Source: an uncultured Thermodesulfobacteriota bacterium | GTDB lineage: Bacteria > Desulfobacterota > GWC2-55-46 > JADFVP01 | NCBI GenBank assembly: GCA_964605225.1 | Contig: CAZSAY010000003.1 | Coordinates: forward strand, 1,863 to 65,862 | Length of the DNA stretch: 64,000 nt | Direction of reading: 5' to 3' | Shown: positions 6,636-25,602 of the stretch, in pieces | Position numbering within the stretch: the first letter of the stretch is position 1 | How the letters are laid out: each line of letters begins with the position of its first letter | Program-made: the position numbers and the translations under genes | Notes under the pieces: model-generated | Told to the model about the DNA's origin: nothing | What the model saw: the letters and a program-made list of their open reading frames with translations, nothing else | Database searches by the model: none

Positions 6636-6729
6636 CGGGTTAAGGCAGGTAAGATAATCCGTAGATGTTATTAAGGCTCCGGGCCTACCTCTTCAATACA
6701 ACCCTGTCAGTCTTAGATCAGCCGGATAT

Positions 6730-8484
6730 ATGAAGTGGAGCGAGAAGAAAAAGAATCGGGCCTTTGAGACCCTCTTAACCTACGGTGGGCGTCACAGCTT
6801 GTGGCTCTACAAGGGGGCGGCGGCTACGCTGGGCGTTGTTGTTTTTCGCCTGCTCATGCCCTGGCCGCTACGGGGCGTAATAGAGATAGTCTTTCCCAGG
6901 GGCTCCCATAAGGGCGCGATTATGGTGCATTATCTCCCCGGCTGGGGTAATCCCGTAATCATGCTGGCCCTGCTTTATCTCCTCTTTGCCATCGGCCTCG
7001 GTATATCAGAGATGTTTCAGCGTGTAAACTTCAAGAGGTTTTCCGCCTCTACCGCTCATGATATGCGCGCCGCGGCGGTTTACGGCGCAGGGACAATGCC
7101 GCTGCACAAGCGCACTGCCACGGGAGATATCGTGGCGCGCATCATCGGCGACAGCGCCCGCATCAAGGCCGGTCTCTCTGGCATAATGGTACACGGTCTA
7201 AAGAACGGCATGCTCTTTATCGCGGCCTGCGCCGTGATAACCTGGGTATCCATTGTCTTTGGGGTTATATTTTTTATATCGGGTCTTATAGCCATATATA
7301 TCGGGTTCTACATTAGCACGCCCGTGGCCGGAACTGCGAGCAAACTGCGGCGAAAGGAGGGGGTGTACGCCACGGCCCTTGCCGAGGGTCTTGACGCAGG
7401 GGTCATGGACCTCAAGATGGATGACATCAACTGGTCCAACGCCCGCAAAAGCGTGAGTATTACGAGGATGATAGCCCGTTCGTCCGTTTGTATTCATCTG
7501 GTTCTCGGCGCCTCGGTTTCCCTTGCCCTCGTGGTGGGGGCAAGGGGCGTGAAGGCGGGCACCATCGCCCCCGGGGACCTTTTCATATTTATCGCCTATG
7601 CCCTCACGCTGCATCGCCGCATGGTGCAGGTGGGTCGGCAGATAGCCCGTACAGGCAAGGTCCTGGCCTGCGCCGAGAGGATAGGGGCCTATGCCCGCTA
7701 TGCCCCGTCTGGAGACGGGGATGCCCATATGACAGATACTCCTTCAGGTCCCCTGCCGCTTGTAACGGGGCTTCGCCTTGAACGGGTCCGTCTTGATATG
7801 GGCCGCGGCAGGGAGGGGAAGCCAAGGCTACGCCGCACGGACCTCCTGCTTGAGCCGGGGAGCCGTGTCGTGGTAATGGGAAGCGTAGGTTCCGGCAAGA
7901 CGAGCCTTATGCATCTGCTCGCCGGCGTGGAGGTTCCCGACAGGGGAAGGGTTTACTGGGATGAAGAGAAGATACTTAAAAAAAATGGCGGCCTCTCATC
8001 GAGGGTGGGCTATCTGCCTCAGACCCCTGTCTTTCCCGCCGCCAGGGTATGGAATCATCTCGGCCTGGCCGACCCCGAGTCCCTGAGCCCTGAGGACGAG
8101 CAGACCCTGCGGCGTCTCGGGTCGTGGAAGATAATAGAGAGTTTCAAGAAGGGACTTGGGCAAAAGGTAGCCTCCAACTCCCTCTCAAGGAATGAGGCGC
8201 GGCTCCTTCGTCTTGCCGGTATCCTTCTCTCTGATACCTCGCCTGTCTGGGTGCTTGATAACCCTCTTGGCGGCCTTAGCGGCGCAAAGGCCCGCCAGTG
8301 TCTTGATGAGATTATCATGCGGGCCTCTCATCGTCTTCTCGTCGTGGCCCTGCCGAACCAGCGTCATGCCATGCGTTTCGAGAGACTGCTCTATCTGAAT
8401 AAAGGTAAAATTCGTTTCGATGGTCCGCCATCGGAGTTCGATGAATGGAAGTCTAATAAGGACAAAGAGAAACAACCGGTATAA
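6730..8484 (+). CDS. Fused ABC transporter permease/ATP-binding protein (exporter type) with a degenerate NBD
   Basis: The N-terminal half is hydrophobic with multiple TM segments. Walker A is GSVGSGKTS and the Q-loop is LPQTP. The signature motif reads LSRNE (not LSGGQ) and Walker B reads VWVLDNP (Asn in place of the catalytic Glu). Confidence 0.75.
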   Translation: MKWSEKKKNRAFETLLTYGGRHSLWLYKGAAATLGVVVFRLLMPWPLRGVIEIVFPRGSHKGAIMVHYLPGWGNPVIMLALLYLLFAIGLGISEMFQRVNFKRFSASTAHDMRAAAVYGAGTMPLHKRTATGDIVARIIGDSARIKAGLSGIMVHGLKNGMLFIAACAVITWVSIVFGVIFFISGLIAIYIGFYISTPVAGTASKLRRKEGVYATALAEGLDAGVMDLKMDDINWSNARKSVSITRMIARSSVCIHLVLGASVSLALVVGARGVKAGTIAPGDLFIFIAYALTLHRRMVQVGRQIARTGKVLACAERIGAYARYAPSGDGDAHMTDTPSGPLPLVTGLRLERVRLDMGRGREGKPRLRRTDLLLEPGSRVVVMGSVGSGKTSLMHLLAGVEVPDRGRVYWDEEKILKKNGGLSSRVGYLPQTPVFPAARVWNHLGLADPESLSPEDEQTLRRLGSWKIIESFKKGLGQKVASNSLSRNEARLLRLAGILLSDTSPVWVLDNPLGGLSGAKARQCLDEIIMRASHRLLVVALPNQRHAMRFERLLYLNKGKIRFDGPPSEFDEWKSNKDKEKQPV

Positions 8485-8521
8485 TCTATATGCTTTTTTT
8501 ACTTGATAAAGGACATTAATC

Positions 8522-9769
8522 ATGCAGGCAGTAATCTTGGCGGCGGGATACGGTAGCAGACTGGAGAGGGTCTCGAATGGGCTCCCAAAGTGCCTTGTGC
8601 CAGTAGGCGGCCGTCCCATTATAGAACATCAGATAGAGGCGTTGAACGACGCCGGCATAGGTCAGGTGCTTGTTGTTGTGGGGTACAAGGCCGAAGAGGT
8701 TCGAAAGGAACTTGGCGCGCGTGTTGAGTATATTGAGAACACCCGTTATGACGAGACGAACAGCATATATTCGCTCTGGCTCGCCCGTGACTGGATAGAT
8801 GGCCCCTTTGTCATGATGAACTGCGATCTGCTCTTTCATCCCCAGATACTGGATCGCCTTTTGTCTCAGGGTGGCAACGGCCTTGCCTTTGATTCTTCCT
8901 CCACCGGTGGGCGTGAGCAGACAAAGGTGGCCGTGCAGGAGGGAAGGGTAGTGGACCTTGGAAAAGATCTACCCTCTGAGTTGTGCCGCGGCGAGAGCAT
9001 CGGCCTTACCTGTTACGACGCCAAAGGGGTGCACAACCTCATGGCGCGCGCCGATGCGCTTATTAAAAACGGCGCGGAGAATTCCTGGAGCATAGAGGCC
9101 ATACGGGGCATATGTTCAACCGTTAAAATGAAGGCATATAACGTAGCCGGCATGCCATGGGTAGAGGTTGATTTTCCAAATGATCTCGTTCGCGCCGAGA
9201 AAGAGGTCTGGCCCGCCATCATGAAGAGCAGATGGAAGAGAACCGTACACTGGAAAAAGACAAAATACCTTGCCATGGCCCTTGTAGCCGCGCTCCTTAT
9301 CTTTTCAGGTTTTGCGTTGGATCACTTTTCCGCCCCCGAGAAGGTTGATTGGACCTCAGAGGCCCCCATAGACGGGCAAAAGACCCTTCTGAAGGCTTCG
9401 AAGGGCTATCAGAAGTGGTGGATATCCACGGCTGGAACGCCCCTCAGGGTCAAGTTTGCGGGGCCGCTTCACGTCAGGGCCTATATGCGCCTTCTTATGC
9501 CTCCGGGAACGGCGAAGCCGGGCAGATATGTCGTGCAGGTTACCCTTGATGGTAAGCCCTACGCGTGGAGCGTCTTCAAGGCAACACCGGACAAGAAGGT
9601 CGCTTATGCAGGGGCCGTGGTGGGAGACCGCGACAGAGTGGATGTTGATGTGCCGGCGGGGTCTCATACGGTGGAGCTCGACCTTGTGGCCGGTGTAAGC
9701 AAGAGGTTTCTCGGGCGTATTCGATATCCTGAACCCGTGACCACGGAGGTGAATAAGAAGGGAGATTGA
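8522..9769 (+). CDS. Sugar/alcohol-phosphate nucleotidyltransferase (LicC/MobA-like NTP_transferase) fused to one TM helix and a C-terminal extracytoplasmic domain
   Basis: The N-terminus MQAVILAAGYGSRL...LPKCLVPVGGRPII carries the nucleotidyltransferase signature. A TM helix (YLAMALVAALLIFSGFAL) sits at about residue 250. It is followed by ~150 aa that are beta-rich and motif-free. Confidence 0.7.
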   Translation: MQAVILAAGYGSRLERVSNGLPKCLVPVGGRPIIEHQIEALNDAGIGQVLVVVGYKAEEVRKELGARVEYIENTRYDETNSIYSLWLARDWIDGPFVMMNCDLLFHPQILDRLLSQGGNGLAFDSSSTGGREQTKVAVQEGRVVDLGKDLPSELCRGESIGLTCYDAKGVHNLMARADALIKNGAENSWSIEAIRGICSTVKMKAYNVAGMPWVEVDFPNDLVRAEKEVWPAIMKSRWKRTVHWKKTKYLAMALVAALLIFSGFALDHFSAPEKVDWTSEAPIDGQKTLLKASKGYQKWWISTAGTPLRVKFAGPLHVRAYMRLLMPPGTAKPGRYVVQVTLDGKPYAWSVFKATPDKKVAYAGAVVGDRDRVDVDVPAGSHTVELDLVAGVSKRFLGRIRYPEPVTTEVNKKGD

Positions 9770-9848
9770 TCCCGCCTTATCCCTTACTCACAATCTTTTC
9801 CACCCCCTGCCTCCGCATACCAGCCCGGCTTCACGGGCACGCCCTTTC

Positions 9849-9876
9849 TTGCAATACTCTTCTTCTGGTGTATAAT
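9849..9876 (+). promoter_or_regulatory. Candidate sigma70-type promoter for the Rieske/Grx/FTR operon
   Basis: TTGCAA (9849-9854), 16-nt spacer, TATAAT (9871-9876), located 52 nt upstream of the 9928 start. Confidence 0.4.
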
Positions 9877-9927
9877 AGAGGTCAAAGTCAGGTCATGGCG
9901 GTTTAGACTTATGAGGAGAAAGGTTCC

Positions 9928-10245
9928 ATGTCTTCAGATCCATGGGTAAATGTGCTTGCCGAGTCGGCCCTGCCCGATTCCAGGCCTTTTGTGACTTTTC
10001 CTCGCGGTGTGCCCGTATTGCTCGTAAAAAAAGATGGTATAATCTACGCCCTCTCAAATAAGTGCGCCCATATGGGTTGCCCCCTTGACGGCGGTACTCT
10101 CAGTGGATTTTTTATACAATGCCCCTGTCATGAATGGAGCTATGATATAAGGACGGGCGCCTTTGTTGACGCAGTGGAGATAACCCTTAAAAAGTACGAA
10201 TTGAAGGTCCGGGATGGCCGTGTATTTATAAGGATTGAGGTGTGA
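9928..10245 (+). CDS. Small soluble Rieske [2Fe-2S] domain protein (Rieske-type ferredoxin)
   Basis: Rieske motif CAH(M)-x17-CPCH is present. The protein is 105 aa with no TM segment. Its stop overlaps the next start. Confidence 0.8.
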   Translation: MSSDPWVNVLAESALPDSRPFVTFPRGVPVLLVKKDGIIYALSNKCAHMGCPLDGGTLSGFFIQCPCHEWSYDIRTGAFVDAVEITLKKYELKVRDGRVFIRIEV

Positions 10246-10520
10246 TGATGAAGAAGATCTTTTTTTATGCCCTTGCCACCTGCCCGGGGTGCAGAAAGAC
10301 CAAAAAATTTTTTATTGAACATAACGTGGATTTTGAATATATGGAGTACGATAACGCCACTGAGGATGAGCAGGCAAGGATACAGAAGGAAATGGACACA
10401 TCGGGTTCTCCGGCCTTTCCATGGGTAAGGATAGGCGAAGATGTTGTCGTGGGCTTTAACCCCGCGAGATACGCGGAGCTACTGGGGATAAGGCTGGAAA
10501 AGAAACCATGGGAGAGGTAA
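10242..10520 (+). CDS. Glutaredoxin/NrdH-like thiol-disulfide oxidoreductase (CPGC active site)
   Basis: An N-terminal beta-strand is followed by CPGC. A cis-Pro region (AFPWVRIGEDVVVGFN) is typical of the Grx fold. The start is GTG 10242 or ATG 10245, overlapping the upstream TGA. Confidence 0.7.
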   Translation: MMMKKIFFYALATCPGCRKTKKFFIEHNVDFEYMEYDNATEDEQARIQKEMDTSGSPAFPWVRIGEDVVVGFNPARYAELLGIRLEKKPWER

Positions 10521-10861
10521 GGGAAAAAGATAATGTCCCGGTGGAGGCCCGCAAAAAGGCCCTGAGGTTTCTCTTCGAGTATGTAGTGGATCTATTAGGT
10601 TATAAGTTCAGCCCCGATGAGGAAACCGTGGATTTTTTGCTTTTGCAGGAGGTCCTGATAGAGACCCGTAAGGGCTCGCCCTTTTGTCCCTGTCAGGGGC
10701 TTACAAAAGACCATGAGCAGAACATGCGCATAGTCTGTCCCTGCATACCATTTCACAGGGCCCATTTCGATCGTATGAGACGGTGCTGGTGCGGGTTATT
10801 CGTCCATAAGGACGTAACGGACCCCGATTCCCTTGATATTATCGCGCCCCATGAGGTGTAG
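10508..10861 (+). CDS. Ferredoxin:thioredoxin reductase catalytic-subunit-like protein (divergent)
   Basis: Three Cys pairs occur as CPC-x14-CPC-x13-CWC (nt 10685-10792). This resembles the FTR beta-chain CPC...CPC...CHC 4Fe-4S/disulfide motif. The gene overlaps the upstream gene by 13 nt. Confidence 0.7.
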   Translation: MGEVREKDNVPVEARKKALRFLFEYVVDLLGYKFSPDEETVDFLLLQEVLIETRKGSPFCPCQGLTKDHEQNMRIVCPCIPFHRAHFDRMRRCWCGLFVHKDVTDPDSLDIIAPHEV

Positions 10862-10872
10862 GGTCATATGAT

Positions 10873-11322
10873 ATGTTTGTAGAGGTAGCGAAAAAAGGCG
10901 ATATAGCCCCGGGCGGCATGAAGGGCTATACTGTGGAAGGCACTGAAATTGTGCTATGTAACGATGCCGGCAAGTACTACGCCGTCTCAAGAAGATGCGG
11001 ACACATGAACGCCCCCCTTGATAAGGGCACTCTCGTGGGTTATATCCTCACCTGCCCCATGCATTACTCGCAGTTCGATGTAAAGAGCGGCAGGGTCCTC
11101 TGCGGTCCCATGCTCCATGATTACACGAGAAGGTATAAGCTGCCCGAGGGCCTCTCGGCCCTTTTCAAGCACATGGGCGGGCTTATGACCGGTATAACAA
11201 AGTGTAAGATAGATACATTCTTTTTCAAGCGCATGGGTGGACTAATGGCCCATATAAAGACGTGTAATCTCAAGACATTCAAGGTAAGGGTCGAGGGTGA
11301 GAGCATACTGGTCGACCTCTAA
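10873..11322 (+). CDS. Rieske [2Fe-2S] domain protein with an internal 20-aa tandem duplication
   Basis: Rieske motif CGH-x17-CPMH is present, and the C-terminal strand FKVRVEGESILV is typical. An inserted, duplicated segment lies before it. Confidence 0.75.
   Translation: MFVEVAKKGDIAPGGMKGYTVEGTEIVLCNDAGKYYAVSRRCGHMNAPLDKGTLVGYILTCPMHYSQFDVKSGRVLCGPMLHDYTRRYKLPEGLSALFKHMGGLMTGITKCKIDTFFFKRMGGLMAHIKTCNLKTFKVRVEGESILVDL
11161..11280 (+). repeat. In-frame 60-bp tandem duplication inside the second Rieske gene
   Basis: Blocks 11161-11220 and 11221-11280 align without gaps: cttttcaagcacatgggcgggcttatgacc... against tttttcaagcgcatgggtggactaatggcc.... They encode FKHMGGLMTGITKCKIDTF / FKRMGGLMAHIKTCNLKTF. 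Confidence 0.85.
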
Positions 11323-11519
11323 TCTCCTTGCTCAGCCATGCCGTCGAGGGTAGGTGGCGGGCCGTGGGATTAGCTCCTTCTATATTTTAGTTCTTTTAGT
11401 CAGTACTCATGAGGACCTCTCCGTTCCTCGCTTCCCCCTGCCCTGCGGCCATGGCGGAGCGAGCACGGGCCTTTTATGGTGTCTGAGTTAAAACTCTCTA
11501 TGAGGAGGCCGCCCAGGGC

Positions 11520-12671
11520 ATGGACATAGTTTATAACGGCACGGAAGACCATACCGTGGGTGTGGAGCTCGAGCTTCAGCTCGTCGACGCAAAGACCCTT
11601 GAGCTTGTGCCCCGGGCCTCGCAGATAATCGAGTCCCTCGACGGGCTCGCGGGTTCCGTAAAGCACGAGCTCATGAGGTCCAACCTCGAGGTTATCTCAA
11701 AAAAATGCTATAGCGTCGCCGAGGCGCAAAGAGACCTATCCTCGAAACTCGCCCCTGTCATAAAGGCCGCGCGCGGCCAGGGCGTGCTTATCGCGGCGGC
11801 AAGCACCCATCCCTTCTCCCGTTGGCAGGCGCAGAGCGTTACACCTGACCCGCGATATAATGAGCTCCTGGATAATCTGCAGATGGTGGCCAGACGGTTT
11901 AATATCTTCGGGCTTCACGTTCATGTGGGGGTCAGCAGTGCTGAAAAGTGCATATATGTAACGAACAGGATACTCTATTACCTGCCCCATCTCCTTGCCT
12001 TATCATCAAACTCGCCTTTCTGGGAAGGAGCGCTTACGGGGCTCCAATCATACAGGATAAAGGTCTTCGAGAACCTTCCCATCGGCGGACTGCCTTTTTA
12101 TTTTCATAATTTTGCCGATTACTCGAAACTCGTAAATACTTACTTGAGGACAGGCACCATAAAGACCATCCGGGAGTTATGGTGGGATGTGCGGCCCCAC
12201 CCTGATTTTGGCACCATAGAGGTGAGGATATGCGACATCCCTTCCACCCTCGGTGAGGCCATGATAATAGCCGCCTTCATTCAGGCGCTGGTAAAGAAGT
12301 TCGGAGAGGATTTTGATAAGGGCGTATGCTTTATAAGACCCCATTCTGCGATAATCAGGGAGAATAAATGGCGTGCCTGCAGGTACGGCCTTGAGGGCGA
12401 GTTTATAGTCGAAGACGGCTCAAAGACCATGGGCGCGCGCGAGGCCCTCCTGGAGCTTCTCGGCTGGTGCGCCGAGGGGGCGGGGAGCCTTGGCGTGGAG
12501 CAGTATCTGGCCGGGCTTGAGTCGACCCTTCGACGCGGGCATACGGGGGCAGTGAGGCAGATAAATATATATGAGGAAAAGGGCGGCCTGAAGGCCCTTA
12601 CAAGAGAGCTGGCTTCTCTACTTGCCGATGAGATTTTGCCGGAGCGAACAGAGGGAGGCAAAGGAGATTGA
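11520..12671 (+). CDS. ybdK: Carboxylate-amine ligase, YbdK / glutamate-cysteine ligase family 2
   Basis: The N-terminal TVGVELELQLVD motif and the overall GCS2 pattern (HVHVGV, WWDVRPH, IEVRICD) are present. Confidence 0.8.
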   Translation: MDIVYNGTEDHTVGVELELQLVDAKTLELVPRASQIIESLDGLAGSVKHELMRSNLEVISKKCYSVAEAQRDLSSKLAPVIKAARGQGVLIAAASTHPFSRWQAQSVTPDPRYNELLDNLQMVARRFNIFGLHVHVGVSSAEKCIYVTNRILYYLPHLLALSSNSPFWEGALTGLQSYRIKVFENLPIGGLPFYFHNFADYSKLVNTYLRTGTIKTIRELWWDVRPHPDFGTIEVRICDIPSTLGEAMIIAAFIQALVKKFGEDFDKGVCFIRPHSAIIRENKWRACRYGLEGEFIVEDGSKTMGAREALLELLGWCAEGAGSLGVEQYLAGLESTLRRGHTGAVRQINIYEEKGGLKALTRELASLLADEILPERTEGGKGD

Positions 12672-15777: not shown

Positions 15778-15853
15778 TGGAGGCGGCGAGCGGATTCGAA
15801 CCGCTGGATGGCAGTTTTGCAGACTGCTCCCTTAGCCACTTGGGTACGCCGCC
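15778..15853 (-). tRNA. tRNA-Cys (anticodon GCA), CCA encoded
   Basis: The reverse complement is GGCGGCGTACCCAAGTGGCTAAGGGAGCAGTCTGCAAAACTGCCATCCAGCGGTTCGAATCCGCTCGCCGCCTCCA. It has a 7-bp acceptor stem, anticodon loop CUGCAAA, TTCGAAT T-loop and discriminator U. Confidence 0.9.
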
Positions 15854-16331: not shown

Positions 16332-16931
16332 ATGAGCAGAGTCAGACTTCTTGAGCGTGATTATCAACTCAAGTTCTGGTTGAGGTTCTGCGGCCTTACC
16401 ATAGGCGGCTTTACGGCCTTCGCCCTTTTTCTGTATCTCACCACCGGCCGTGACCTTGGCCGATCCTACGGCGAGGCCATGTACACTATTTACGCCCTGA
16501 GAATAAATATCTCTTCCCTTATTCTGGCCTCTGTTTATTCCATCGTCATCATGGTCCTCACGGCGGTTTTCATTTCCCTGGTCTCCATATTTTTTACTCA
16601 CCGCATGGCAGGACCCATCTTCAGGTTTACTCAGGACCTTGAGCCTCTTGCCTCAGGGGATATCAGAGGTGAGACGAGGTTCAGGAGACTGGATCAGTAC
16701 GCTCTGCTGGCGATGGAGAAAAATAATATGACAGAGAGGCTGAGGTCTCTTGTAGTGGCGTCAAGGGATGATTTTTCGGCCGTGAGGGGGGCTTGTAAGA
16801 GGCTCGTTGAGATGGCCTCAGGTGGTGAGGGTTCCGAAGGCGAGGAGCAGATGAGAGAGGCCCTTAAGGACCTTGGTCTGCTCGTGGAGCAGATGATGGC
16901 CAGGGCCCAAAAGATAAAGACAGGCATATAA
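16332..16931 (+). CDS. 2-TM membrane protein with a cytoplasmic HAMP-like domain and coiled-coil tail; no output domain
   Basis: Two hydrophobic helices flank a ~25-aa loop. A HAMP-like segment follows (HRMAGPIFRFTQDLEPLASGDIRGETRFRRLDQYALLAMEKNNMTERL), then ~60 aa of helical, charged tail. Confidence 0.6.
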   Translation: MSRVRLLERDYQLKFWLRFCGLTIGGFTAFALFLYLTTGRDLGRSYGEAMYTIYALRINISSLILASVYSIVIMVLTAVFISLVSIFFTHRMAGPIFRFTQDLEPLASGDIRGETRFRRLDQYALLAMEKNNMTERLRSLVVASRDDFSAVRGACKRLVEMASGGEGSEGEEQMREALKDLGLLVEQMMARAQKIKTGI

Positions 16932-16935
16932 TATC

Positions 16936-17784
16936 GTGGCGCACAAGACCCCTGCCCTTCGGGGCGGCGGAGGTTATAGACAGGTGATAAAGGTTCTGTT
17001 CCTACTCTTATTGGCGGCGGCTATCCCAGTTTTTTCAGACTCCCAGGCATCTCCGGAGCCAGGGTATCACGATTTTAGCGGCCTATGCCTTGATTGCCAT
17101 ATAAAAATGCCCATGCCCGGAGAAAAAAGGCCCACCCTTAAAAAAGACGTGACCGTATTATGCGATAAGTGCCATAAACAGGAGGACGGCCTCTCACACC
17201 CCGTTGACATAAGGCCAGCCATGGACGTGCCCGATAATCTGCCCCTTGACTGGAGGGGCATGGTTACCTGCGTTACCTGCCACAGCGTTCATAAGCCTGG
17301 TTTCGGCCCTTCTCACATGAGGACAAGGGCCCGGGGGCAGGGCTTTTGCGTGCTCTGCCATAGTGGTCCTGACGAGAAGATGCACAGCGTCTTTGGTGTG
17401 GGCGCGCATATGGGCGGGGTGGTAAAGGCGGCCTATGCTCCCGGCAATATCGGAGTGGTGCGCCTTGATGAGATGAGTATAAAGTGCATGAGCTGTCATG
17501 ACGCGATATTAGGCTCTGAGTCTACTGTTACAAACGTGGATATCTACAGGAGCCAGCATAGCAACACAACGGGGCTGACCCATCCCGTGGGGGTCTCTTA
17601 TGCCGAGGCAAAGAGAAAATACAGGGGCGCTTACAGGGACATGGCTAAACTGCCCCCGCAGATAAAGTTCTACGGCGGCAGGGTCGGTTGCGGAACCTGC
17701 CACAGCCCTTACGCGAGGGGACATTCGCAGCTGGTAATGGACAATTACGGGAGTAATCTCTGCCTTGCCTGTCATATTAAATAG
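16936..17784 (+). CDS. Periplasmic heptahaem c-type cytochrome
   Basis: Seven CXXCH motifs are present (CLDCH, CDKCH, CVTCH, CVLCH, CMSCH, CGTCH, CLACH). There is an N-terminal signal-like hydrophobic segment. The start is GTG. Confidence 0.85.
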   Translation: MAHKTPALRGGGGYRQVIKVLFLLLLAAAIPVFSDSQASPEPGYHDFSGLCLDCHIKMPMPGEKRPTLKKDVTVLCDKCHKQEDGLSHPVDIRPAMDVPDNLPLDWRGMVTCVTCHSVHKPGFGPSHMRTRARGQGFCVLCHSGPDEKMHSVFGVGAHMGGVVKAAYAPGNIGVVRLDEMSIKCMSCHDAILGSESTVTNVDIYRSQHSNTTGLTHPVGVSYAEAKRKYRGAYRDMAKLPPQIKFYGGRVGCGTCHSPYARGHSQLVMDNYGSNLCLACHIK

Positions 17785-17838
17785 GCAGGCCCGTAGTTGA
17801 AAGCAGTTTAATGTTATGCTATGATAGGGAGGTCTCAA

Positions 17839-18447
17839 ATGGGCAGATACCCCTGGTTCAGGAGAAGGCGGTTTTTTATCCGCAAAGGCCCGCAGGGCCG
17901 TTTCGTTGTGGGGATGGCCGTTGTCGTAACTCTGGGGCTGTTAATCAACATTATTGCCGCTTATTTTCTCATTGATAACAGGCTTGCCGCGAGGCTTTAT
18001 AAAATTCACTTGCAGGCGAGCTCTACCTTGGATATAATCTGGCCTGTTATATGGAAGTTGACCCTTGGGAGCGCTTTTTTTGTAGTCCTCGCCGGGGTTG
18101 CCCTGGGGTATTACCTCACAAGGCGTCTTGATATCGTGCTCGTATCTTATCTTGATGTCATGAAAAGGGCGGGCCAGGATAAGGACCTCACCGTGAGGGT
18201 CAGGACCTCGTCTCATGACCTTTCTGACGCGGGTAGCGCCTTTAACAGGGCTATAATGTTTTTTGATGAGAGGCTCGGAAAGGCAAAGGTCGCTGCTACA
18301 GAGATAGAGACTTCCATGAAGGAGATAAACCGCCTCATGGGAGCCCAAGAGGAGCCGTTAAGAAGAGAAGAACTCATAGCAGAACTGAATCATATGATGT
18401 CACGAAGCAATGAAGCGTTAAACGATATCTCAATTTTCAGGGTATGA
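17839..18447 (+). CDS. Second 2-TM HAMP-only membrane protein (architectural paralogue of 16332..16931)
   Basis: It has the same layout: an R-rich N-terminus, TM1, a ~30-aa loop, TM2, then a HAMP-like segment (TRRLDIVLVSYLDVMKRAGQDKDLTVRV...LSDAGSAFNRAIMFFDERL) and a coiled-coil tail. I prefer the ATG at 17839 with GGGAGG 7 nt upstream. The track start is 17821. Confidence 0.6.
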   Translation: MGRYPWFRRRRFFIRKGPQGRFVVGMAVVVTLGLLINIIAAYFLIDNRLAARLYKIHLQASSTLDIIWPVIWKLTLGSAFFVVLAGVALGYYLTRRLDIVLVSYLDVMKRAGQDKDLTVRVRTSSHDLSDAGSAFNRAIMFFDERLGKAKVAATEIETSMKEINRLMGAQEEPLRREELIAELNHMMSRSNEALNDISIFRV

Positions 18448-18453
18448 TATTAT

Positions 18454-19605
18454 ATGAGACAAACTTCGCGAAGAAGCTACGCTACGGTATTTATTAAATT
18501 TTTCATAGCCATCGTCTTTTTTTCCCTTCCCGCCCTTATGCTTCCGGTAAAGGCCTATGCGGATTGGCCTATGTTCATGAAGGACAGGGCACATTCCTCA
18601 TTTGCCGCCGCGGCTCCGAGGCCTCCTCTTAAGGTCCTCTGGAAATTCTCCACAGACGGCCCTGTTTATTCATCACCTGTTGTCTCTGGCGGCAAGGTCT
18701 TTGTGGGCTCTTATGACAACAGGCTTTATGCCCTTAAAGAGGATTCCGGAGTTAAGCTCTGGAGTTTTGCCACTGGCGGTGAAATCCTATCAACTCCGGC
18801 TGTCAAGGACGGTCATGTCTATTTTGGCTCAAAGGACGGCAAATTCTACTGCATTGACGCCAGGGACGGAAAACTCATCTGGAGTTTCACTACAGAGGGG
18901 TCCATACTTAACTCTCCCGTAGTGGGCGACGGTAAGGTCTTTTTCGGTTCATCGGACATGTTCTTCTACGCCCTTGATGCTGGCACGGGTAAGAAGATCT
19001 GGCGGACGAAGCTCCTCGCTTACGATAGATACAGCGGCATATACTCATCTCCCATGTACTACAAGGGCGCCGTAGTCTTTGCCGGCAAAAACGGATTGGT
19101 CTACTCACAGGAAGGCAAGAGCGGCGCCAGAAACTGGGGGTATAACTCCAATTCCGCCATATACTCAAGCCCCGTTGCGAAGGACGGCACAGTATACATG
19201 GCTCTCGGCAAACGAAAATTAATTGGTTTTAACGCAAAAACCGGCGACATTACCTTCAGAAAAAACACCGGTAAGTCCCTCATATATTCCTCACCCGTTG
19301 TGGCGGGAGGTAAGATTTATCAGGCCTTTAAAGACGGCCATATAAGGGCTTTCGGGATGCGGCGCGGCAAAGTTCTCGCCGATTACAAGCTCCCCGCTCC
19401 TGTTAACTCAACGCCTGTTGTTACCTCTAATGGTTTTATATATGTGGGGTGCGATGACGGCCGTCTCTATGCCATTGACATTATCCTTGGCGAGGTGAGC
19501 TGGAGTTATGCCACGGGCGGCGCGGTACATAGCTCACCGGCCGTATCAGGCGGCAGGCTCTTTGTCGGTTCAAAGGACGGCTCGGTCTATGCCTTCGGGC
19601 AATAG
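18454..19605 (+). CDS. Secreted PQQ-like (BamB-type) beta-propeller repeat protein
   Basis: A signal peptide is present (…VKAYA/DW). Blades of the form SSPVVxxGKVFVGSxDxxLYALDxxTGKxxW are repeated about 8 times. Confidence 0.8.
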   Translation: MRQTSRRSYATVFIKFFIAIVFFSLPALMLPVKAYADWPMFMKDRAHSSFAAAAPRPPLKVLWKFSTDGPVYSSPVVSGGKVFVGSYDNRLYALKEDSGVKLWSFATGGEILSTPAVKDGHVYFGSKDGKFYCIDARDGKLIWSFTTEGSILNSPVVGDGKVFFGSSDMFFYALDAGTGKKIWRTKLLAYDRYSGIYSSPMYYKGAVVFAGKNGLVYSQEGKSGARNWGYNSNSAIYSSPVAKDGTVYMALGKRKLIGFNAKTGDITFRKNTGKSLIYSSPVVAGGKIYQAFKDGHIRAFGMRRGKVLADYKLPAPVNSTPVVTSNGFIYVGCDDGRLYAIDIILGEVSWSYATGGAVHSSPAVSGGRLFVGSKDGSVYAFGQ

Positions 19606-19694
19606 CCTCTAATGGCTTTTTAATCTTTAGTTATGTAAAAGATAAACTTCAGGCAAGGGCGTAAGGGCCGTGCCTGTATAAGGGTCAATTTATC

Positions 19695-20291
19695 ATGCGT
19701 ATTGCGTATACCGTATTTTCAAGAAGCATTGCCATCCTCTGCCTCCTCATCTTCGCCTGCTCTGGTCCTGCCATCGCGGCGAAAAAAAAGGTGGTTAGAA
19801 AGCTCTCTTATGACAAGGCCTCTGCCAGAAAGTCCCTTATAGATCCACACGAACAGATAAATGACGAAGGCGAGATACTCTGGTCAAAGTGTCTTATCTG
19901 TCACAGGAAGATGCCTGATATGGAAAATCTGAAATCGCCTTTGAACTGGGAGCTTCGTTTCAGCGGCGATATTGATAAAAACTGTTATATCTGCCACGTT
20001 GTAAAAAAACACCCCGGCTCCCAGGGTATAGGTGTTGCTATGAGCGGCTTCAAGGCGCCCAGTCATCTCAGGGAGCTCTCAAGAAAATTATACCTTAACA
20101 TGAGGCTTGAGAAAAAGGATGTACCTGTCCTTCTTCCCCTTGATCCCGCCACAGACAAGATATTCTGCGGGACATGTCATAGCCCCCATGAGAGGGGCTT
20201 GCTTTACGGCAGAGCAGACTGGGGCGCGGGACAGGAGACGCGCCTGAGGACAGAGGGGCTGGATATCTGTCAGTACTGTCATAGAAAATAG
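19695..20291 (+). CDS. Tetrahaem c-type cytochrome with signal peptide
   Basis: Four CXXCH motifs are present (CLICH, CYICH, CGTCH, CQYCH), with an N-terminal hydrophobic leader. Confidence 0.8.
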   Translation: MRIAYTVFSRSIAILCLLIFACSGPAIAAKKKVVRKLSYDKASARKSLIDPHEQINDEGEILWSKCLICHRKMPDMENLKSPLNWELRFSGDIDKNCYICHVVKKHPGSQGIGVAMSGFKAPSHLRELSRKLYLNMRLEKKDVPVLLPLDPATDKIFCGTCHSPHERGLLYGRADWGAGQETRLRTEGLDICQYCHRK

Positions 20292-20309
20292 GTGGCATCT
20301 GGTAAAATT

Positions 20310-21449
20310 ATGAAAGAGAATCCTTCTTTGAACGGTTGTTTTAGCTCCTCAAGTGGGCAGTGGACCGGAGCCCCGGGACGCGCTTTGGCGCTCTTCTTGC
20401 CATGTCTTCTGGTCGTTGCCCTTTTCTTCGTCGCCGTCGGCTGCGGAAGCCCTGATATATCCTCACAACAGTCAAAAGACTTCAAACACAAACCCCTCAT
20501 CTGGCCGGAACCTCCCGCGGCGGCGCGTATAGCCTTTGATATTTCAATAGCAAGGCCCGAGGACGCAGGCATCAAGAAGGGGCTCTTTAAAAAAATTGTC
20601 GATGTCGTTATGGGCGAGGACAAGCGCTCCATGGTGAAGCCCTACGGTATCGCCGTGGATAACAATGGCAGGGTTATTGTGGCTGATACGGCCTTTAAGA
20701 GGCTTCATATATATGACAGGAAGAAAAAGAAGTATTTTCATATAGACAGGGCAGGCAAAACCCCTCTGGTCTCGCCCATAGGGGTGGCCACGGACAACGC
20801 GGATAACATATATGTAAGCGATTCCGTGGCGCGAAAGGTCTACGTCTTTAACTCAAAGGGGCATTTGCTACGCTCTATTGACGGCGGCGTGCGGCCCACG
20901 GGTATAGCCGTTGACGCCCCGCGAAAGCGTCTTTATGTGGTGGACACGGGCGCACATGAGGTGAGTATATTAACCCTGCAGGGTAAACTCATAGGGAGTT
21001 TTGGAGGCCTCGGCTCGGGAGAGGGTCAATTTAATTATCCCATGGATATCTTTGTTGACGACAGGGGCGATATATATGTGACGGATTCCATGAACTACAG
21101 AATTCAGATTTTTGACATGAATGGCCGTTATCAGACGAGTTTCGGCGAGCACGGTGACGGCACAGGCGACTTTGGCCGGCCAAAGGGCATAGGGGTTGAC
21201 TCTGAGGGGAATATCTACGTGGCCGACGCCGTATTTGATACGGTTCAGGTATTTTCAAGGAAGGGCGCCTTTCTTCTTAACTTTGGAAAACTTGGCTCAG
21301 GGGCAGGAATGTTCTGGATGCCCGGCGGACTCTTCATAGATGGCGCCGACAATATCTACGTGGCAGACCCGTATAACAGGAGGATAGAGGTCTTCGAGTA
21401 TCTTGGCGGCGGTGGTGATGAGGGAGGGGTGTTCCGTCGGCGCGGTTAG
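20310..21449 (+). CDS. NHL-repeat beta-propeller lipoprotein
   Basis: A lipobox-like FFVAVGC is present. There are six NHL-type repeats (e.g. PIGVATDNADNIYVSDSVARKVYVFNSKG; YPMDIFVDDRGDIYVTDSMNYRIQIFDMNGR). The start is ATG 20310 or GTG 20292. Confidence 0.8.
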   Translation: MKENPSLNGCFSSSSGQWTGAPGRALALFLPCLLVVALFFVAVGCGSPDISSQQSKDFKHKPLIWPEPPAAARIAFDISIARPEDAGIKKGLFKKIVDVVMGEDKRSMVKPYGIAVDNNGRVIVADTAFKRLHIYDRKKKKYFHIDRAGKTPLVSPIGVATDNADNIYVSDSVARKVYVFNSKGHLLRSIDGGVRPTGIAVDAPRKRLYVVDTGAHEVSILTLQGKLIGSFGGLGSGEGQFNYPMDIFVDDRGDIYVTDSMNYRIQIFDMNGRYQTSFGEHGDGTGDFGRPKGIGVDSEGNIYVADAVFDTVQVFSRKGAFLLNFGKLGSGAGMFWMPGGLFIDGADNIYVADPYNRRIEVFEYLGGGGDEGGVFRRRG

Positions 21450-21503
21450 CCAGGGGGGAGGGTTAAACATGGGCCTGCTCTCACAAGGATATGAATTTAA
21501 AAA

Positions 21504-21670
21504 AAGGGGCCTGATTTAAAGGGGGGGGTAAAAAAGGTTTTAATTTTTTACAAGGGGCCTGGTTTTGAAAAGTGTCTGGTTTTGAAGGGGCCTGGTTTTT
21601 ACAAGGGGCCTGGTTTTGAAAAGTGCCTGGTTTTGAAGGGGCCTGCTTGTTAAGGGGTGTGGTTTTAAAG
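21504..21670. repeat. Tandem array: ~9 units of ~17 bp (core GGGGCCTGGTTTTGAA), including two adjacent 51-bp higher-order copies
   Basis: 21550-21600 and 21601-21651 match at 48 of 51 positions. Each comprises three ~17-bp subunits. Degenerate units flank them at 21504-21520 and 21653-21670. The array lies in the ~410-bp gap between the NHL gene and the 11-haem cytochrome gene. Confidence 0.85.
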
Positions 21671-21860
21671 GGGCATAGCGATATAAGCAGGTGCCCGAAG
21701 TCTTGAGCTTTGCCAGTTATGAGAGGCCGCTACGGAGTGCCTCAACACGGGCAGGCGGCAGGCAGAACTTTTATTTTCATAATTTCCGCAGGGGGTTTAC
21801 CCGTTGCCTGCGTTTTTTCATCTCTCATCAAAGTAGGTCTTTAGCCGCTGGAGGGTTGTC

Positions 21861-24077
21861 TTGAGATACGAAGAGTTTATCAAACGTGGAGCGCCTTATG
21901 GACAAAGGTCTTACGGACGTCCCGTGAAGGCACGCTCGTTCTTTCGCGCTTTTGCCCGGGGCATTGGTCTGCTTACTCTCGTGCTCATGTTTCTTGCCAT
22001 GGGGCCCGCCCCCGCCTCTGCCACAGTGGCCGCCACAAAACATAACTTCAGCGTCTTTTCATCGGCCGCTGTGAAGACCGTAACCACCACTAGGATATGC
22101 GTCTTTTGCCATGCCCCCCATAACACAAACCCGTCAGGCCCCATGTGGAACAGAGCGGATTCAGGGGCCACCTATAATATCTACCAGAGCGATACCGTCG
22201 TGGCTACCATGGGTCAGCCCACTGGTTCCTCAAAGCTCTGTCTCTCCTGTCACGATGGCACTATAGCCATAGGCTCACTTCTGAACCTGAGCGGAGGCCC
22301 TGCCAACCTGCCCGTTACAGGCCCGGGTGTTACTTCCGGCAAAATGACCACCGCCTCCACCGCTTTTGTAGGGACGGATTTAAGGGATGACCATCCCATT
22401 TCCTTTGACTACGCTCTCTCGAGCCCGGCAAATGTGGAGATAAAGGCGGCCGCGTCCCTTCCGGCGGAGGTGAAGCTTGAGAAGTCCAATAAGAAGAGCA
22501 TGGTTCAATGCACCTCTTGCCATGATCCTCACGGGACCATATACCCGTCCTTTATGGTAGAGCCCCTTGAGAACGGCGTGCTCTGCGAGGCCTGCCATGA
22601 CAAGAGGTACTGGAACACCAATCCCTCGGTACACAGAGACTCTCTGGCCCTGTGGAATACCCTTGGCCAGAATCCCTACCACCTTGATATGGGCGCATCG
22701 GGCTTTGGCGATGACACGCCAAAGATGCATAGCTGTCTCTCCTGTCACCGCAGTCATGGCGGCATGGCCGGGAAAAGTCTCTTGAAGGGCACAAATCCCA
22801 CAAGCGGACTCATAGAGGATGGGGAGTGGACCTGTCTTAACTGTCATAACGGCAATGTGGCGGCCAAAAATATAGATGGCCTTTTATCCAGGATATCCAT
22901 ACACGACGTCAAGGGTGTCAGCGGCGCCCATATACCCTCGAGGGCCTTTTCCGGAGATCCGGTACGCGAAACCGCTCTCAACCTCGGCACCAACAGGCAC
23001 GCCGAATGTGTGGATTGCCACAATCCCCATGCGACCAAGGCCGGTAACCATCCCATAGGCGGGATCAACGGTAATATCATAGGTTCCAACCTATTAGGCT
23101 CTTGGGGCGTCAGGCCCGTATTATGGCCTTTCTCCGGACCCGTTATCAGCTATCAGGAAGTTGATTTCCTCTCAACTACGCCCGGGGGCTATAACCTTGA
23201 GGGCTACCTCTGCATTAAGTGCCATTCCTATTACGCCTACGGGGTCATACCGCCTGACGTGCCTTCCGGAAACGCCGATGGCAGCATTGTAAAAGAATCA
23301 GACCCCACAGTTGATTTCAATATCAATAATGAGGGCTTTCATCCCGTTTTCGCGGCAGGCAGGAACAGGCCCCTGCCCACGGCCAACCCCAACTGGCCGG
23401 CCAACGGACTTGGCCTTACCAATACATTTACTTATTTCGATTTTTCCGGCATAGGGCCGAGGACAGGTTTTTTCAATGTTAAACACGATTCCACCATAAC
23501 CTGCACGGACTGTCACGGTCCGGATTCAGCCTCTGACCCGCAGGGTCCTCATGGCTCCAATAATAAGTGGATCCTCAGAAATAATCAGAGGACCGTGGGG
23601 TCTATTCAAAACTTCTGCTACAACTGTCACAGGCGCGATGTCTACGGAGACGAGGGCTATGTGGGGCCAAACGCGAACTTTTCCAGGGTGCCGCACCCCG
23701 TTGACGGCCTTGGCCTTGCCTCGCCTTTTTACACGACAGGCGTAGGTACAGGCAATGACAGCAACCGTTTCGGCAATCTCTGCCTTACCTGTCATGGCGG
23801 CGCCTATGACACGGCAAATAACATGATGAAGGGTATACACGGAAGTAACGCCCCTGCCGGAACGGTGGTGGGATCGAGTCCCCTTGGATTCAGGCTTATG
23901 AACGGGGCCTGTATAGAGTCTTATGTGCCGGCCACGACGCTTACAAGTGCAAAGCTCTACTTCAGAACCGTCAGCTCGGCTCTCGATAAGGTATGCAAGA
24001 ATAATTTTGTCAATATTCTTACCACCGGCGTGAAGGCTACATATAATTGCAATACAGTCACCGATTGTTCAAATTAA
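21861..24077 (+). CDS. Large undecahaem c-type cytochrome (doubled-CXXCH-type motifs)
   Basis: Eleven CXXCH motifs are present (CVFCH, CLSCH, CTSCH, CEACH, CLSCH, CLNCH, CVDCH, CIKCH, CTDCH, CYNCH, CLTCH). The signal peptide reads RSFFRAFARGIGLLTLVLMFLAMGPAPASA. The start is TTG 21861 (GGAGGG upstream) or GTG 21924. Confidence 0.85.
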   Translation: MRYEEFIKRGAPYGQRSYGRPVKARSFFRAFARGIGLLTLVLMFLAMGPAPASATVAATKHNFSVFSSAAVKTVTTTRICVFCHAPHNTNPSGPMWNRADSGATYNIYQSDTVVATMGQPTGSSKLCLSCHDGTIAIGSLLNLSGGPANLPVTGPGVTSGKMTTASTAFVGTDLRDDHPISFDYALSSPANVEIKAAASLPAEVKLEKSNKKSMVQCTSCHDPHGTIYPSFMVEPLENGVLCEACHDKRYWNTNPSVHRDSLALWNTLGQNPYHLDMGASGFGDDTPKMHSCLSCHRSHGGMAGKSLLKGTNPTSGLIEDGEWTCLNCHNGNVAAKNIDGLLSRISIHDVKGVSGAHIPSRAFSGDPVRETALNLGTNRHAECVDCHNPHATKAGNHPIGGINGNIIGSNLLGSWGVRPVLWPFSGPVISYQEVDFLSTTPGGYNLEGYLCIKCHSYYAYGVIPPDVPSGNADGSIVKESDPTVDFNINNEGFHPVFAAGRNRPLPTANPNWPANGLGLTNTFTYFDFSGIGPRTGFFNVKHDSTITCTDCHGPDSASDPQGPHGSNNKWILRNNQRTVGSIQNFCYNCHRRDVYGDEGYVGPNANFSRVPHPVDGLGLASPFYTTGVGTGNDSNRFGNLCLTCHGGAYDTANNMMKGIHGSNAPAGTVVGSSPLGFRLMNGACIESYVPATTLTSAKLYFRTVSSALDKVCKNNFVNILTTGVKATYNCNTVTDCSN

Positions 24078-24222
24078 AGAGAGGCTATGTGTGAGGGGTT
24101 TTCTTAATCAGACAAGGCCTGTTCCATTAAACTCAAGAGGGCTCGCTATCTACAGGCGCATGAAGGGTATCCTTAAATTATTTGAAGAGCCACATCCTGC
24201 TTCACGTCGCGGGGATGTCATT

Positions 24223-24639
24223 ATGCATGGAAGAAAAGGCCTTTATTTTATTGCGCTAACAGTTGTTCTTGTCCTTATGTTCGGCCTCCAGCTAAGTCAC
24301 TCTACCGTGGCAGGGGCCGCCTCCACAGGTAACAACCCTCATGATTTTTCCAATAAAGAGGAGTGTTCCTCCTGTCACGGGAGCTCAATGCCGTCCTTGA
24401 GTTTCGACTCCGTTACAGTCTGCACGCGTTGTCATGAGGGGTTTCTTGGCAACCATCCCGTGGCAAAACACCCCATAGGCAAGATACCGGAGATAAACAT
24501 AACCAAACTTATGCCCCTTAGCTCTGATGGAAAGATGGTATGCTATACCTGTCATGATAATCATAACAGTTCAAGTTATCCTAAGATGTTGAGGACAGAT
24601 TACATGCGGTTATGCTCATCGTGCCACAGAGGGTATTAA
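24223..24639 (+). CDS. Tetrahaem c-type cytochrome
   Basis: Four CXXCH motifs are present (CSSCH, CTRCH, CYTCH, CSSCH). A hydrophobic leader follows the Met at 24223. The track ORF begins at GTG 24091, so the start is uncertain. Confidence 0.75.
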   Translation: MHGRKGLYFIALTVVLVLMFGLQLSHSTVAGAASTGNNPHDFSNKEECSSCHGSSMPSLSFDSVTVCTRCHEGFLGNHPVAKHPIGKIPEINITKLMPLSSDGKMVCYTCHDNHNSSSYPKMLRTDYMRLCSSCHRGY

Positions 24640-24669
24640 AAAATCGTCTCTACGGGAGGTCTTTTTAGA

Positions 24670-25602
24670 GTGAAGTTCCTGCGTTTGTCCCTTATACCGG
24701 CCGTTCTTATCGCCGCGTCCATGGCACTGCCGCTCTCGCCGATAGCCGCGGCGGAGTTAAAAGGCCCATCCGGTCCACCTGAATACCACAAGGTTCAGCC
24801 GCCGTCATGGTACGGCTCCGTTGTAATGAAGAAGAATATAAAGAAGGGTGAGGCCGTGGCGCCGGTGGTCTTCAAACACTGGTTGCACAGGAGGTATTAT
24901 ACCTGCAATGTCTGCCACGGAACCCTAGATTTCGCCATGAAGGCAGGCAAAACGGATATCAGGCAGGCGGATATCGAGGCCGGGAAAAAATGCGGGGCCT
25001 GTCATAACGGAGAGGTCGCCTTCGGCCCTGATAAATGCCTTCGCTGTCATTCATATGGGCTGAAAGTAAAGGAAAATTCGCGTTTAGAGTACGCCCTAAA
25101 GGGCATGCCGAAAGATGATTTTGGCAACAAGGTAAACTGGGTCAAGGCCCTTCGTAAGAAAAAGATAAGACCCGCCGCCTCCCTTGAAGGCAAGGGAAAA
25201 CTCAAATCCCTTGATAAGGACATAATTATTCCATCGACCATTTACACCCCGGCCCCTCCGGCGGTGCTCTTTCCCCATAAGGCCCATACCGAGGTCATGG
25301 ACTGCAAGTCCTGCCACCCGGGGCGCTTCAAGGCTAAAAAGGGAGGCACCCCCGGGATGGACATGATGAAGATAATAAATGGCCGGTACTGCGGCGCATG
25401 CCACGGCAAGGTGGCCTTTCCTCTTGAGGATTGTTTCCGGTGTCACTCTCAGGCGCAGATAATACCTGACTGGATAACAGGAGCGGATGAGGTAAAAGAA
25501 AAGGCTGCCAAGGAAAAACAAAAAAAAGAGAGAGAAAAAAAGAAAAAAGAAGAGGAAGAGAGAAAGAAAAAAAAGAAAGGACCGCGTAAATTCCTCTTTT
25601 AG
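24670..25602 (+). CDS. Hexahaem cytochrome made of two c7-like trihaem units, with a Lys/Glu-rich C-terminal tail
   Basis: Six CXXCH motifs fall in two similar blocks (FKHWLH..CNVCH..CGACHNGEVAF..CLRCH, and FPHKAH..CKSCH..CGACHGKVAF..CFRCH). A signal peptide is present. The tail reads EVKEKAAKEKQKKEREKKKKEEEERKKKKKGPRKFLF. Confidence 0.8.
   Translation: MKFLRLSLIPAVLIAASMALPLSPIAAAELKGPSGPPEYHKVQPPSWYGSVVMKKNIKKGEAVAPVVFKHWLHRRYYTCNVCHGTLDFAMKAGKTDIRQADIEAGKKCGACHNGEVAFGPDKCLRCHSYGLKVKENSRLEYALKGMPKDDFGNKVNWVKALRKKKIRPAASLEGKGKLKSLDKDIIIPSTIYTPAPPAVLFPHKAHTEVMDCKSCHPGRFKAKKGGTPGMDMMKIINGRYCGACHGKVAFPLEDCFRCHSQAQIIPDWITGADEVKEKAAKEKQKKEREKKKKEEEERKKKKKGPRKFLF

Follow-up and report, generated by a model that had tools for sequence, protein, structure and literature searches.

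What does a HAMP domain do in a protein that has neither an input nor an output domain? HAMP domains are relays between input and output in the same protein, and two genes in a 64,000-nucleotide stretch of DNA from an uncultured Thermodesulfobacteriota bacterium (contig CAZSAY010000003.1, positions 1,863 to 65,862; hereafter the window) raise this question. Their products, A (16332-16931) and B (17839-18447), are predicted two-helix membrane proteins of about 200 amino acids (aa) with a HAMP-like region and a short helical tail. An earlier note, made from the sequence alone, described them as paralogous HAMP-only proteins, each heading a periplasmic redox module, and proposed that they are split sensors signalling through a separately encoded partner. 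Sequence comparisons now place A and B among the diverged members of a large, widespread, unnamed and output-less family of ~190-aa proteins, here called mini-HAMPs. We observed that each sequence subfamily has a characteristic gene immediately downstream, which encodes one particular exported or signal-anchored protein and is often coupled to the mini-HAMP gene in translation. As gene neighbours, A is paired with a probably membrane-anchored 7-haem cytochrome and B with a PQQ-like propeller. Below we weigh whether the mini-HAMPs transduce signals for these partners, hold them in place, or do something else.

A and B are distant paralogues with a HAMP-type cytoplasmic half

Neither A nor B matched the Pfam HAMP model (PF00672) as a single sequence, even at E<=1, and BLASTP found no similarity between the two. 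Both claims of the earlier note, HAMP identity and paralogy, failed at this level and held only when profiles were compared. Close homologues (10 clusters for A, 12-21 for B) are all about 200 aa long, all come from Thermodesulfobacteriota metagenome-assembled genomes (MAGs) or metagenomes, and co-occur on the same contigs. Searched against the PDB, the A-family profile matched the second transmembrane segment, the HAMP and the beginning of the next helix of Tsr (1.7e-7) and PcaY (3.4e-5), as well as Aer and Af1503-HAMP chimeras, with matches to the Tsr/Af1503 HAMPs spanning 1.7e-7 to 1e-2. The B-family profile returned only coiled-coil noise from the PDB. PF00672 was matched weakly by three of the ten close A homologues, and by 101 of 147 wider relatives (best 1.4e-12). 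The cytoplasmic half of A aligned with this HAMP-positive core family at 99.7% (hhalign, E 3e-26), and that of B, which is linked to HAMP only transitively, at 97.7% (E 2e-12). Both alignments ran end to end over 103-108 columns.

The two full-length profiles also aligned with each other (hhalign 82.7%, E 9.5e-6). Taken alone, neither the cytoplasmic halves (9.9%) nor the transmembrane halves (1.8%) gave a significant alignment, and the case for direct homology thus rests on intermediates. The A profile scored a set of intermediate proteins at 1e-15 to 1e-25 in a search of 1.8 billion proteins, and the B profile scored the same proteins at 1e-10 to 1e-23 within the A-profile match set. Since both profiles reach the same intermediates, A and B are ancient, highly diverged paralogues; at the profile level they group as genuine members of one HAMP-type family. 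B is the more derived of the pair: both its AS1 proline and its SHKIAGP junction motif are gone.

Transmembrane (TM) segments were called by Kyte-Doolittle windows, which gave two hydrophobic segments in each protein and about 23 outward-facing residues. The N-termini are rich in Lys and Arg (5 of 18 residues in A, 7 of 17 in B), which places the N-terminus inside, the loop outside, and the HAMP and everything past TM2 in the cytoplasm. In A, TM1 (aa ~19-37), an outside loop (aa ~38-61, GRDLGRSYGEAMYTIY...) and TM2 (aa ~62-88) are followed by the HAMP (aa ~89-140, THRMAGPIFRF...GDIRG...LDQYALLAMEKNNM) and a helical hairpin (aa 141-199) with KIKTGI as its last residues. B has an N-terminal RRRRFFIRKGPQGRF motif, TM1 at aa ~22-45 and TM2 at aa ~69-92. 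Its outside loop carries a conserved His (RLYKIHLQASST), and a diverged HAMP without the AS1 proline (GQDKDLTVRV...SAFNRAIMFFDERL) leads into a helical hairpin whose last residues are SIFRV.

AlphaFold2 monomer models, which are of low confidence, show TM1, a break, TM2 continuous with helix 1, a connector, helix 2, a turn and a return helix. The modelled helices of A span residues 2-39, 51-107, 122-164 and 168-197, those of B are analogous, and the connector is a non-helical stretch of 14-16 residues (108-121 in A, 114-128 in B). Hydropathy and the secondary structure of these low-confidence models agree in placing a HAMP-like helix-connector-helix directly past the last TM segment. They likewise agree with the shared architecture read earlier from the sequence (TM1, short loop, TM2, HAMP-like region and a helical tail of ~60 residues).

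The absence of an output domain was also borne out, as neither A nor B matched any Pfam or NCBIfam model of a kinase, methyl-accepting chemotaxis protein (MCP) signalling, cyclase or GGDEF domain. The MCP signalling domain (PF00015) was found neither in A and B nor in their close homologues or the 147 wider relatives, and Pfam matches to HisKA/DHp plus HATPase_c were missing from A, B and the same 147 relatives. NCBIfam kinase models covered the TM2 and HAMP region only.

The mini-HAMP family is large and uniform in layout

An exhaustive search of the 1.8 billion proteins with the A profile returned 10,162 matches at E<=1e-3; 575 cluster representatives passed E<=1e-10. Nearly all of the best 150 matches are 150-260 aa long, mostly 180-205 aa, and in nearly all of them most of the length was covered. 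A single one of the 147 relatives carries an output-type domain, a receiver. Family members share a basic N-terminus (RRxYFIKKxFQxxF), TM1, a loop of ~25 residues, TM2, a HAMP with the consensus SHKIAGPLYRxEK...GDLT...LRxxDQxxxLAxxxNxM, an antiparallel helical hairpin and a C-terminal FK[T/V/L]. In an alignment with 48 diverse members, A and B match from one end to the other, both terminal motifs included, and they show the same features: ~180-205 aa, an N-terminal basic/FQxxF motif, two TM segments, a HAMP, a hairpin and an FK[T/V/L]-like end.

None of the Pfam or NCBIfam models scanned describes the whole protein. The NCBIfam CtpM, MtrB and WalK models match 125-136 of the 147 members, over TM2-HAMP and the first part of the next helix only. 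In public databases, members are labelled 'hypothetical', 'HAMP domain-containing' or 'methyl-accepting chemotaxis protein', the last of which is misleading as it reflects the HAMP region only. One exact junction pattern occurs at no fewer than 600 places (>=600) in species-representative genomes, and the best 80 loci for this pattern are chiefly from Omnitrophota and Desulfobacterales.

Each subfamily precedes its own exported protein

Genomic context was read in 80 genome and 80 metagenome loci, a non-random sample made up of those most similar to the two query profiles, with genes called by greedy choice of open reading frames (ORFs). The 202 distinct family members were clustered by UPGMA on p-distances, which does not amount to a phylogeny. 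The clusters and their neighbours were as follows.

Majority cluster, 106 members: upstream, a SurA_N-like lipoprotein (90/106); downstream, a ~190-aa HExxH protein with a signal peptide (80/106)
Cluster holding A, 32 members: upstream, varied; downstream, a multihaem cytochrome (20/20 readable cases)
Cluster holding B, 18 members: upstream, a cytochrome (8), otherwise varied; downstream, a PQQ-like propeller (15/15 readable cases)
Clusters 1 and 8, 19 and 17 members: a second, independent paired lineage

In all 20 readable cases, the cytochrome that follows an A-type gene is specifically a 7-haem one. Clusters 1 and 8 occur in two arrangements, one running mini-HAMP, 7-haem cytochrome, mini-HAMP and small 4-haem cytochrome, the other a tandem mini-HAMP pair adjoining 6-haem cytochromes. 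In the majority cluster, Pfam SurA_N_3 matched 61 of the 63 upstream proteins scanned, and the HExxH partner matched no Pfam, NCBIfam or PDB family. The majority triad (SurA_N/EpsD-like lipoprotein, mini-HAMP and secreted ~190-aa HExxH protein) is seen, for example, at positions 4439-11522 of locus L015, among loci L014-L089. In Omnitrophota it sits in PEP-CTERM/EPS-type exopolysaccharide export loci, alongside genes for a priming glycosyltransferase, a beta-barrel, a Wza-like exporter and an EpsD-like isomerase.

The earlier note had suggested a survey of whether homologues always neighbour multihaem cytochromes. They do so for the A type, without exception among the readable cases, and mostly do not in the wider family: at 79 of the 80 genome loci, fewer than three CXXCH motifs lie within 6 kb. 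The note had named homologues with normal output domains and no cytochrome neighbours as grounds for refuting its proposal; most homologues do lack such neighbours, but they lack output domains too. Because most homologues have no cytochrome neighbour, the family is not intrinsically a redox sensor.

In the cytochrome lineages the mini-HAMPs are duplicated into pairs. A second mini-HAMP gene lies within 4 kb in 16 of the 17 cytochrome-headed loci with enough downstream sequence, and more than one is present in only 7 of 86 SurA-type loci. In some loci the two genes stand in tandem. The order A, 7-haem cytochrome, B, propeller, 4-haem cytochrome, NHL propeller and 11-haem cytochrome is kept in relatives only 29-40% identical to A. 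The placement of each mini-HAMP directly upstream of exported redox-module proteins, described earlier for the window, is confirmed, as are the 7-haem cytochrome, the propeller and the 4-haem cytochrome themselves.

Other genes join the cytochrome clusters in some loci. Some related clusters (L107 4515-6086, L113 9677-11365, L103 8069-8995) have, between the 7-haem cytochrome and the B-type gene, one or two genes for TPR-repeat proteins of 240-310 aa that start with a hydrophobic segment; these genes are absent from the cluster in the window. At L099 1625-7727, and also in L100, L101, L108 and L135, three hemE, hemH and hemY/hemG-like genes, assigned from N-terminal sequences only, are divergent from the cytochrome cluster. 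A diguanylate cyclase with dCache, HAMP, GAF and GGDEF domains (Pfam-confirmed) adjoins the hem-like genes there. It was rejected as a conserved partner: it lies beyond the hem-like genes, in divergent orientation, in five loci, and is absent from the window's cluster and most related loci.

Coupling to the downstream partner and conservation of the loop

In most relatives, the start of the downstream cytochrome gene overlaps the mini-HAMP stop by 4-8 nucleotides (nt). Furthermore, in five independent genomes a mini-HAMP is fused to the HExxH protein as one polypeptide of 388-389 aa, in which the signal-peptide-like segment of the HExxH protein is retained as a third TM past the FFKV end. These fusions are at positions 8001-9170 in each of L010-L013 and L043.

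The 7-haem cytochromes have a hydrophobic helix without an obvious AxA site, followed within about 10 residues by W.SYH.F.G.C..CH, a NapC/NrfH-like layout. By contrast, the propellers downstream of B-type genes carry signal peptides of the classic AxA/DWPMF kind.

In the A and B families alike, conservation peaks in the outside loop (0.89 in A, 0.80 in B), ahead of the HAMP (0.74 and 0.63) and the tail (0.52 and 0.54); TM2 is also highly conserved (0.85). Loop sequences are subfamily-specific. A loop His is conserved in at least 90% of the B-type (cluster 7) and cluster-8 proteins and absent from the majority subfamily; in B it lies at residues ~53-58 (RLYKIH). That this His supplies a missing haem ligand is unsupported, as a crude count of conserved His outside the haem motifs gave 7-8 for the seven haems and 4 for the four.

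The gene block in the window resembles omcE-type clusters

Both ORFs are present as the earlier note described them, and A and B belong to a block of nine tightly spaced plus-strand genes (16332-25602).

16332-16931, plus strand: mini-HAMP A, 199 aa
16936-17784, plus strand: 7-haem c-type cytochrome, 282 aa
17839-18447, plus strand: mini-HAMP B, 202 aa
18454-19605, plus strand: PQQ/BamB-like beta-propeller, 383 aa
19695-20291, plus strand: secreted 4-haem c-type cytochrome, 198 aa
20292-21449, plus strand: NHL-repeat six-bladed beta-propeller, 385 aa
21861-24077, plus strand: 11-haem cytochrome with 11 CXXCH motifs, OmcE-like over residues 36-248, 738 aa
24091-24639, plus strand: 4-haem cytochrome that, jointly with the next gene, ends the conserved cluster, 182 aa
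24670-25602, plus strand: cytochrome c7-type multihaem protein, the final gene of the conserved cluster, 310 aa

The 7-haem cytochrome gene starts 4 nt past the A stop. Its product has an N-terminal hydrophobic helix and the first haem motif within about 10 residues of it (YHDFSGLCLDCH), and is for this reason probably signal-anchored. For B, a start at 17839 is favoured over 17821 because a GGGAGG motif lies 8 nt upstream of it and all B homologues start at the equivalent MGKYPW. The PQQ-like propeller has a cleavable-looking signal peptide (…AYA/DWPMF), and the NHL propeller has a lipobox-like VAVGC following a hydrophobic stretch.

The block is preceded by a tRNA gene and a 480-bp spacer and followed by unrelated housekeeping genes. 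No riboswitch or other RNA element was detected in the 480-bp region upstream of A, even at E<=1, and promoter and terminator scans gave nothing exceeding shuffled expectation. The window has two tRNA genes (28664-28736 and, on the minus strand, 15781-15853) and a bacterial class A RNase P RNA (30276-30663, 293 bits), which ends 54 nt before the long ORF of a HAMP-adenylate cyclase (30717-32321) whose true start is probably an internal ATG near 30897. An 876-aa protein encoded at 25777-28407 combines DHH/DHHA1, two CBS domains and a poly(A) polymerase/CCA-adding head domain, and this fusion is kept at the same position in syntenic MAGs.

Over residues 36-248, the 738-aa cytochrome shows homology to the nanowire subunit OmcE (7TFS_A, 5.8e-22) and also to a second filament entry (9YUQ_N, 4.7e-22). 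In the 11-haem protein this OmcE-like domain is N-terminal, and a long additional multihaem region is attached to it. According to a 2025 preprint, minimal omcE clusters always contain two multihaem cytochromes, two beta-propeller lipoproteins, OmcE and a large beta-barrel, and the secretion and assembly of the nanowires remain unexplained (bioRxiv 10.1101/2025.10.22.684050). With the Desulfuromonadia omcE clusters the window shares two multihaem cytochromes, two propellers and an OmcE-like cytochrome. By its predicted gene content the block therefore resembles these published clusters, barrel excepted: no homologue of a 666-883-aa candidate barrel was found in the 64-kb window. Such candidates lie directly upstream of A-type genes in other loci (L103 4664-6664, L105 3286-5715, L107 791-2941, L113 5213-7864). 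Found among L103-L118, they are mutually homologous, belong to no Pfam family and have an outer-membrane-protein-like C-terminus (...SRSFxxF).

Two further differences separate the block from the published clusters. A lipobox is present only on the NHL propeller and the PQQ-like propeller has an AxA-type signal peptide, whereas both published propellers are lipoproteins. The window also has two mini-HAMPs, whereas the word HAMP has 0 occurrences in the published description (bioRxiv 10.1101/2025.10.22.684050). A beta-propeller protein also occurs in the omcS-companion (osc) cluster, together with a prolyl-isomerase chaperone that recalls the SurA-like neighbour of the majority mini-HAMPs. The literature searched contained nothing relevant on HAMP-only proteins or on HAMP proteins in omcE or omcS clusters, and described no inner-membrane component with a cytoplasmic domain for omcE clusters.

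Transducers, scaffolds or other roles

The reading that we favour is that A and B are inner-membrane transducer or adaptor subunits for the adjacent exported proteins and not autonomous sensors; we regard the case for it and the case against it as evenly balanced. We infer that the TM/loop region of each mini-HAMP is where the product of the next gene binds, and that the conserved HAMP, hairpin and terminal motifs serve a common cytoplasmic function. A mini-HAMP would dimerise, possibly as an A/B heterodimer, and the partner would dock at its subfamily-specific TM1-loop-TM2 region. The state of the partner would be coupled to the family-wide cytoplasmic bundle of HAMP and hairpin, which would be read through protein-protein contact and not by a fused enzyme. 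The direction may also be the reverse, with the cytoplasm controlling the periplasmic partner.

Several observations weigh against this reading. The AlphaFold2 models have pLDDT values of 64 and 56, and Foldseek found no match to them in the PDB below E=1. B has lost the AS1 proline and the junction motif, and with them HAMP switching could have been lost. The cleavable-looking signal peptide of the propeller leaves only the short loop for contact with B. No cytoplasmic partner gene is conserved in the loci examined, so the argument for signalling over scaffolding is drawn solely from the canonical HAMP features that are kept. HAMP proteins go unmentioned for the Desulfuromonadia omcE clusters, and mini-HAMPs are therefore not a universal part of OmcE systems. 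Finally, synteny of the closest loci (L001-L003) extends to the flanking housekeeping genes, and these loci are for that reason not independent evidence.

Some of these points suit a purely structural role, in which mini-HAMPs are inner-membrane anchors or scaffolds that organise the partner during folding, haem loading or export, and the HAMP and hairpin form a dimerisation bundle that carries no signal. The earlier note had itself named membrane anchoring of the cytochrome assembly as an alternative, and it is viable; we consider a structural role a real possibility, if a less probable one. It would account for the lack of an output domain and of a conserved cytoplasmic partner gene, for the loss of canonical AS1 features in B and for the existence of a fusion to the periplasmic partner. 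The majority subfamily adjoins a SurA/EpsD-like chaperone in exopolysaccharide export loci, which is an assembly context, and the assembly of nanowire cytochromes is an open question. However, the P, the G, the DQ/DE-x-x-x-LA, the N-x-M and both cytoplasmic terminal motifs are kept family-wide, beyond what a dimerisation bundle needs, and the family is most similar to the HAMPs of MCPs and kinases, which do switch. We favour the transducer or adaptor role over the scaffold because the canonical HAMP positions and both cytoplasmic end motifs are kept.

A role as membrane subunit of a quinol:cytochrome oxidoreductase appears distinctly unlikely. Here A would act with the 7-haem cytochrome and contribute helices to a quinone site, B would be a second such subunit, and the HAMP would be incidental. 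The NapC/NrfH-like layout of the 7-haem cytochrome, with a weak match to NrfH, the translational coupling of its gene to A and the high conservation of TM2 (0.85) are all consistent with such a complex. Yet most of the family has no cytochrome partner, the partner of B is a propeller and not a cytochrome, and neither a quinone-site motif nor a match to a known quinol-dehydrogenase family was found.

The candidate partner put forward in the earlier note, the HAMP-adenylate cyclase at 30717-32321, did not hold up, and we consider it highly improbable that A and B are split redox or occupancy sensors signalling to it. The cyclase is real (Pfam HAMP 2.2e-11, Guanylate_cyc 6.6e-22), lies 5 kb downstream of the cluster, and has a TM2-HAMP region that resembles the mini-HAMP family. 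However, unrelated housekeeping genes intervene (a CCA-adding enzyme fusion, a zinc-ribbon protein, an RNase H-like protein and the RNase P RNA), and its own large periplasmic sensor region and HAMP make a separate sensor unneeded. No cyclase homologue occurs in any cytochrome-linked related locus, a lack of co-occurrence that refutes the model, if weakly; the only two cyclase matches come from loci of the non-cytochrome subfamily, where they are encoded on the other strand.

That A and B are decayed, functionless truncated chemoreceptor or kinase genes, as the MCP names given to relatives by some pipelines and the best PDB and NCBIfam matches (MCPs and kinases) could suggest, has next to no probability and is refuted by the conserved length, the family-specific N- and C-terminal motifs, the hundreds of diverged members across phyla, the strict synteny and the conservation of the loop.

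The transducer or adaptor reading can be taken further, to a proposal that is rather unlikely to hold in all its parts. A and B would pair as a heterodimer and act as a HAMP transducer without output domain where an OmcE-type cytochrome assembly meets the inner membrane. There A would grip the TM anchor of the 7-haem cytochrome, B would engage the propeller or a cytochrome through its conserved loop His, and the shared bundle would report, or gate from the cytoplasmic side, the loading or redox state of the wire through the terminal motifs. Mini-HAMPs in general would then be a modular 'partner-switch across the membrane' for many exported-protein systems, including exopolysaccharide-linked SurA/HExxH modules. 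The charging, assembly and export of cytochrome nanowires are open questions for which the A/B pair gives concrete candidates.

Comparison with known systems

By sequence, mini-HAMPs are closest to MCPs (Tsr, PcaY, CtpM) and to HAMP histidine kinases (MtrB, WalK, BaeS, CpxA). Compared with these proteins of 500-700 aa, mini-HAMPs are about 200 aa long and lack a kinase-control hairpin tip, DHp/CA domains and a ligand-binding domain in the periplasm.

Intramembrane-sensing kinases of the BceS/LiaS type have a two-TM input with a short loop, delegate sensing to a separately encoded neighbour and have their own kinase output. Mini-HAMPs resemble them in this minimal input, whereas the mini-HAMP output is missing or separate.

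Transducers of the HtrII type, such as the sensory rhodopsin II transducer, receive their signal laterally from a separately encoded membrane partner and not from a ligand-binding domain of their own. In HtrII as in the mini-HAMPs, two TM helices are joined by a very short loop on the outside and followed by a cytoplasmic HAMP, and the A-family profile matches HtrII weakly (E 0.43). HtrII goes on to a complete MCP signalling domain, through which it controls CheA, whereas A and B end after a hairpin of ~60 residues without a PF00015 match; the partner of HtrII is a seven-helix photoreceptor, whereas the neighbours of mini-HAMPs are exported proteins. Mini-HAMPs are thus a large conserved family that keeps the HAMP relay without an input or output domain. 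With a partner that is separately encoded and, in one class, also fused, they offer a natural system for how HAMP conformational signals pass between proteins.

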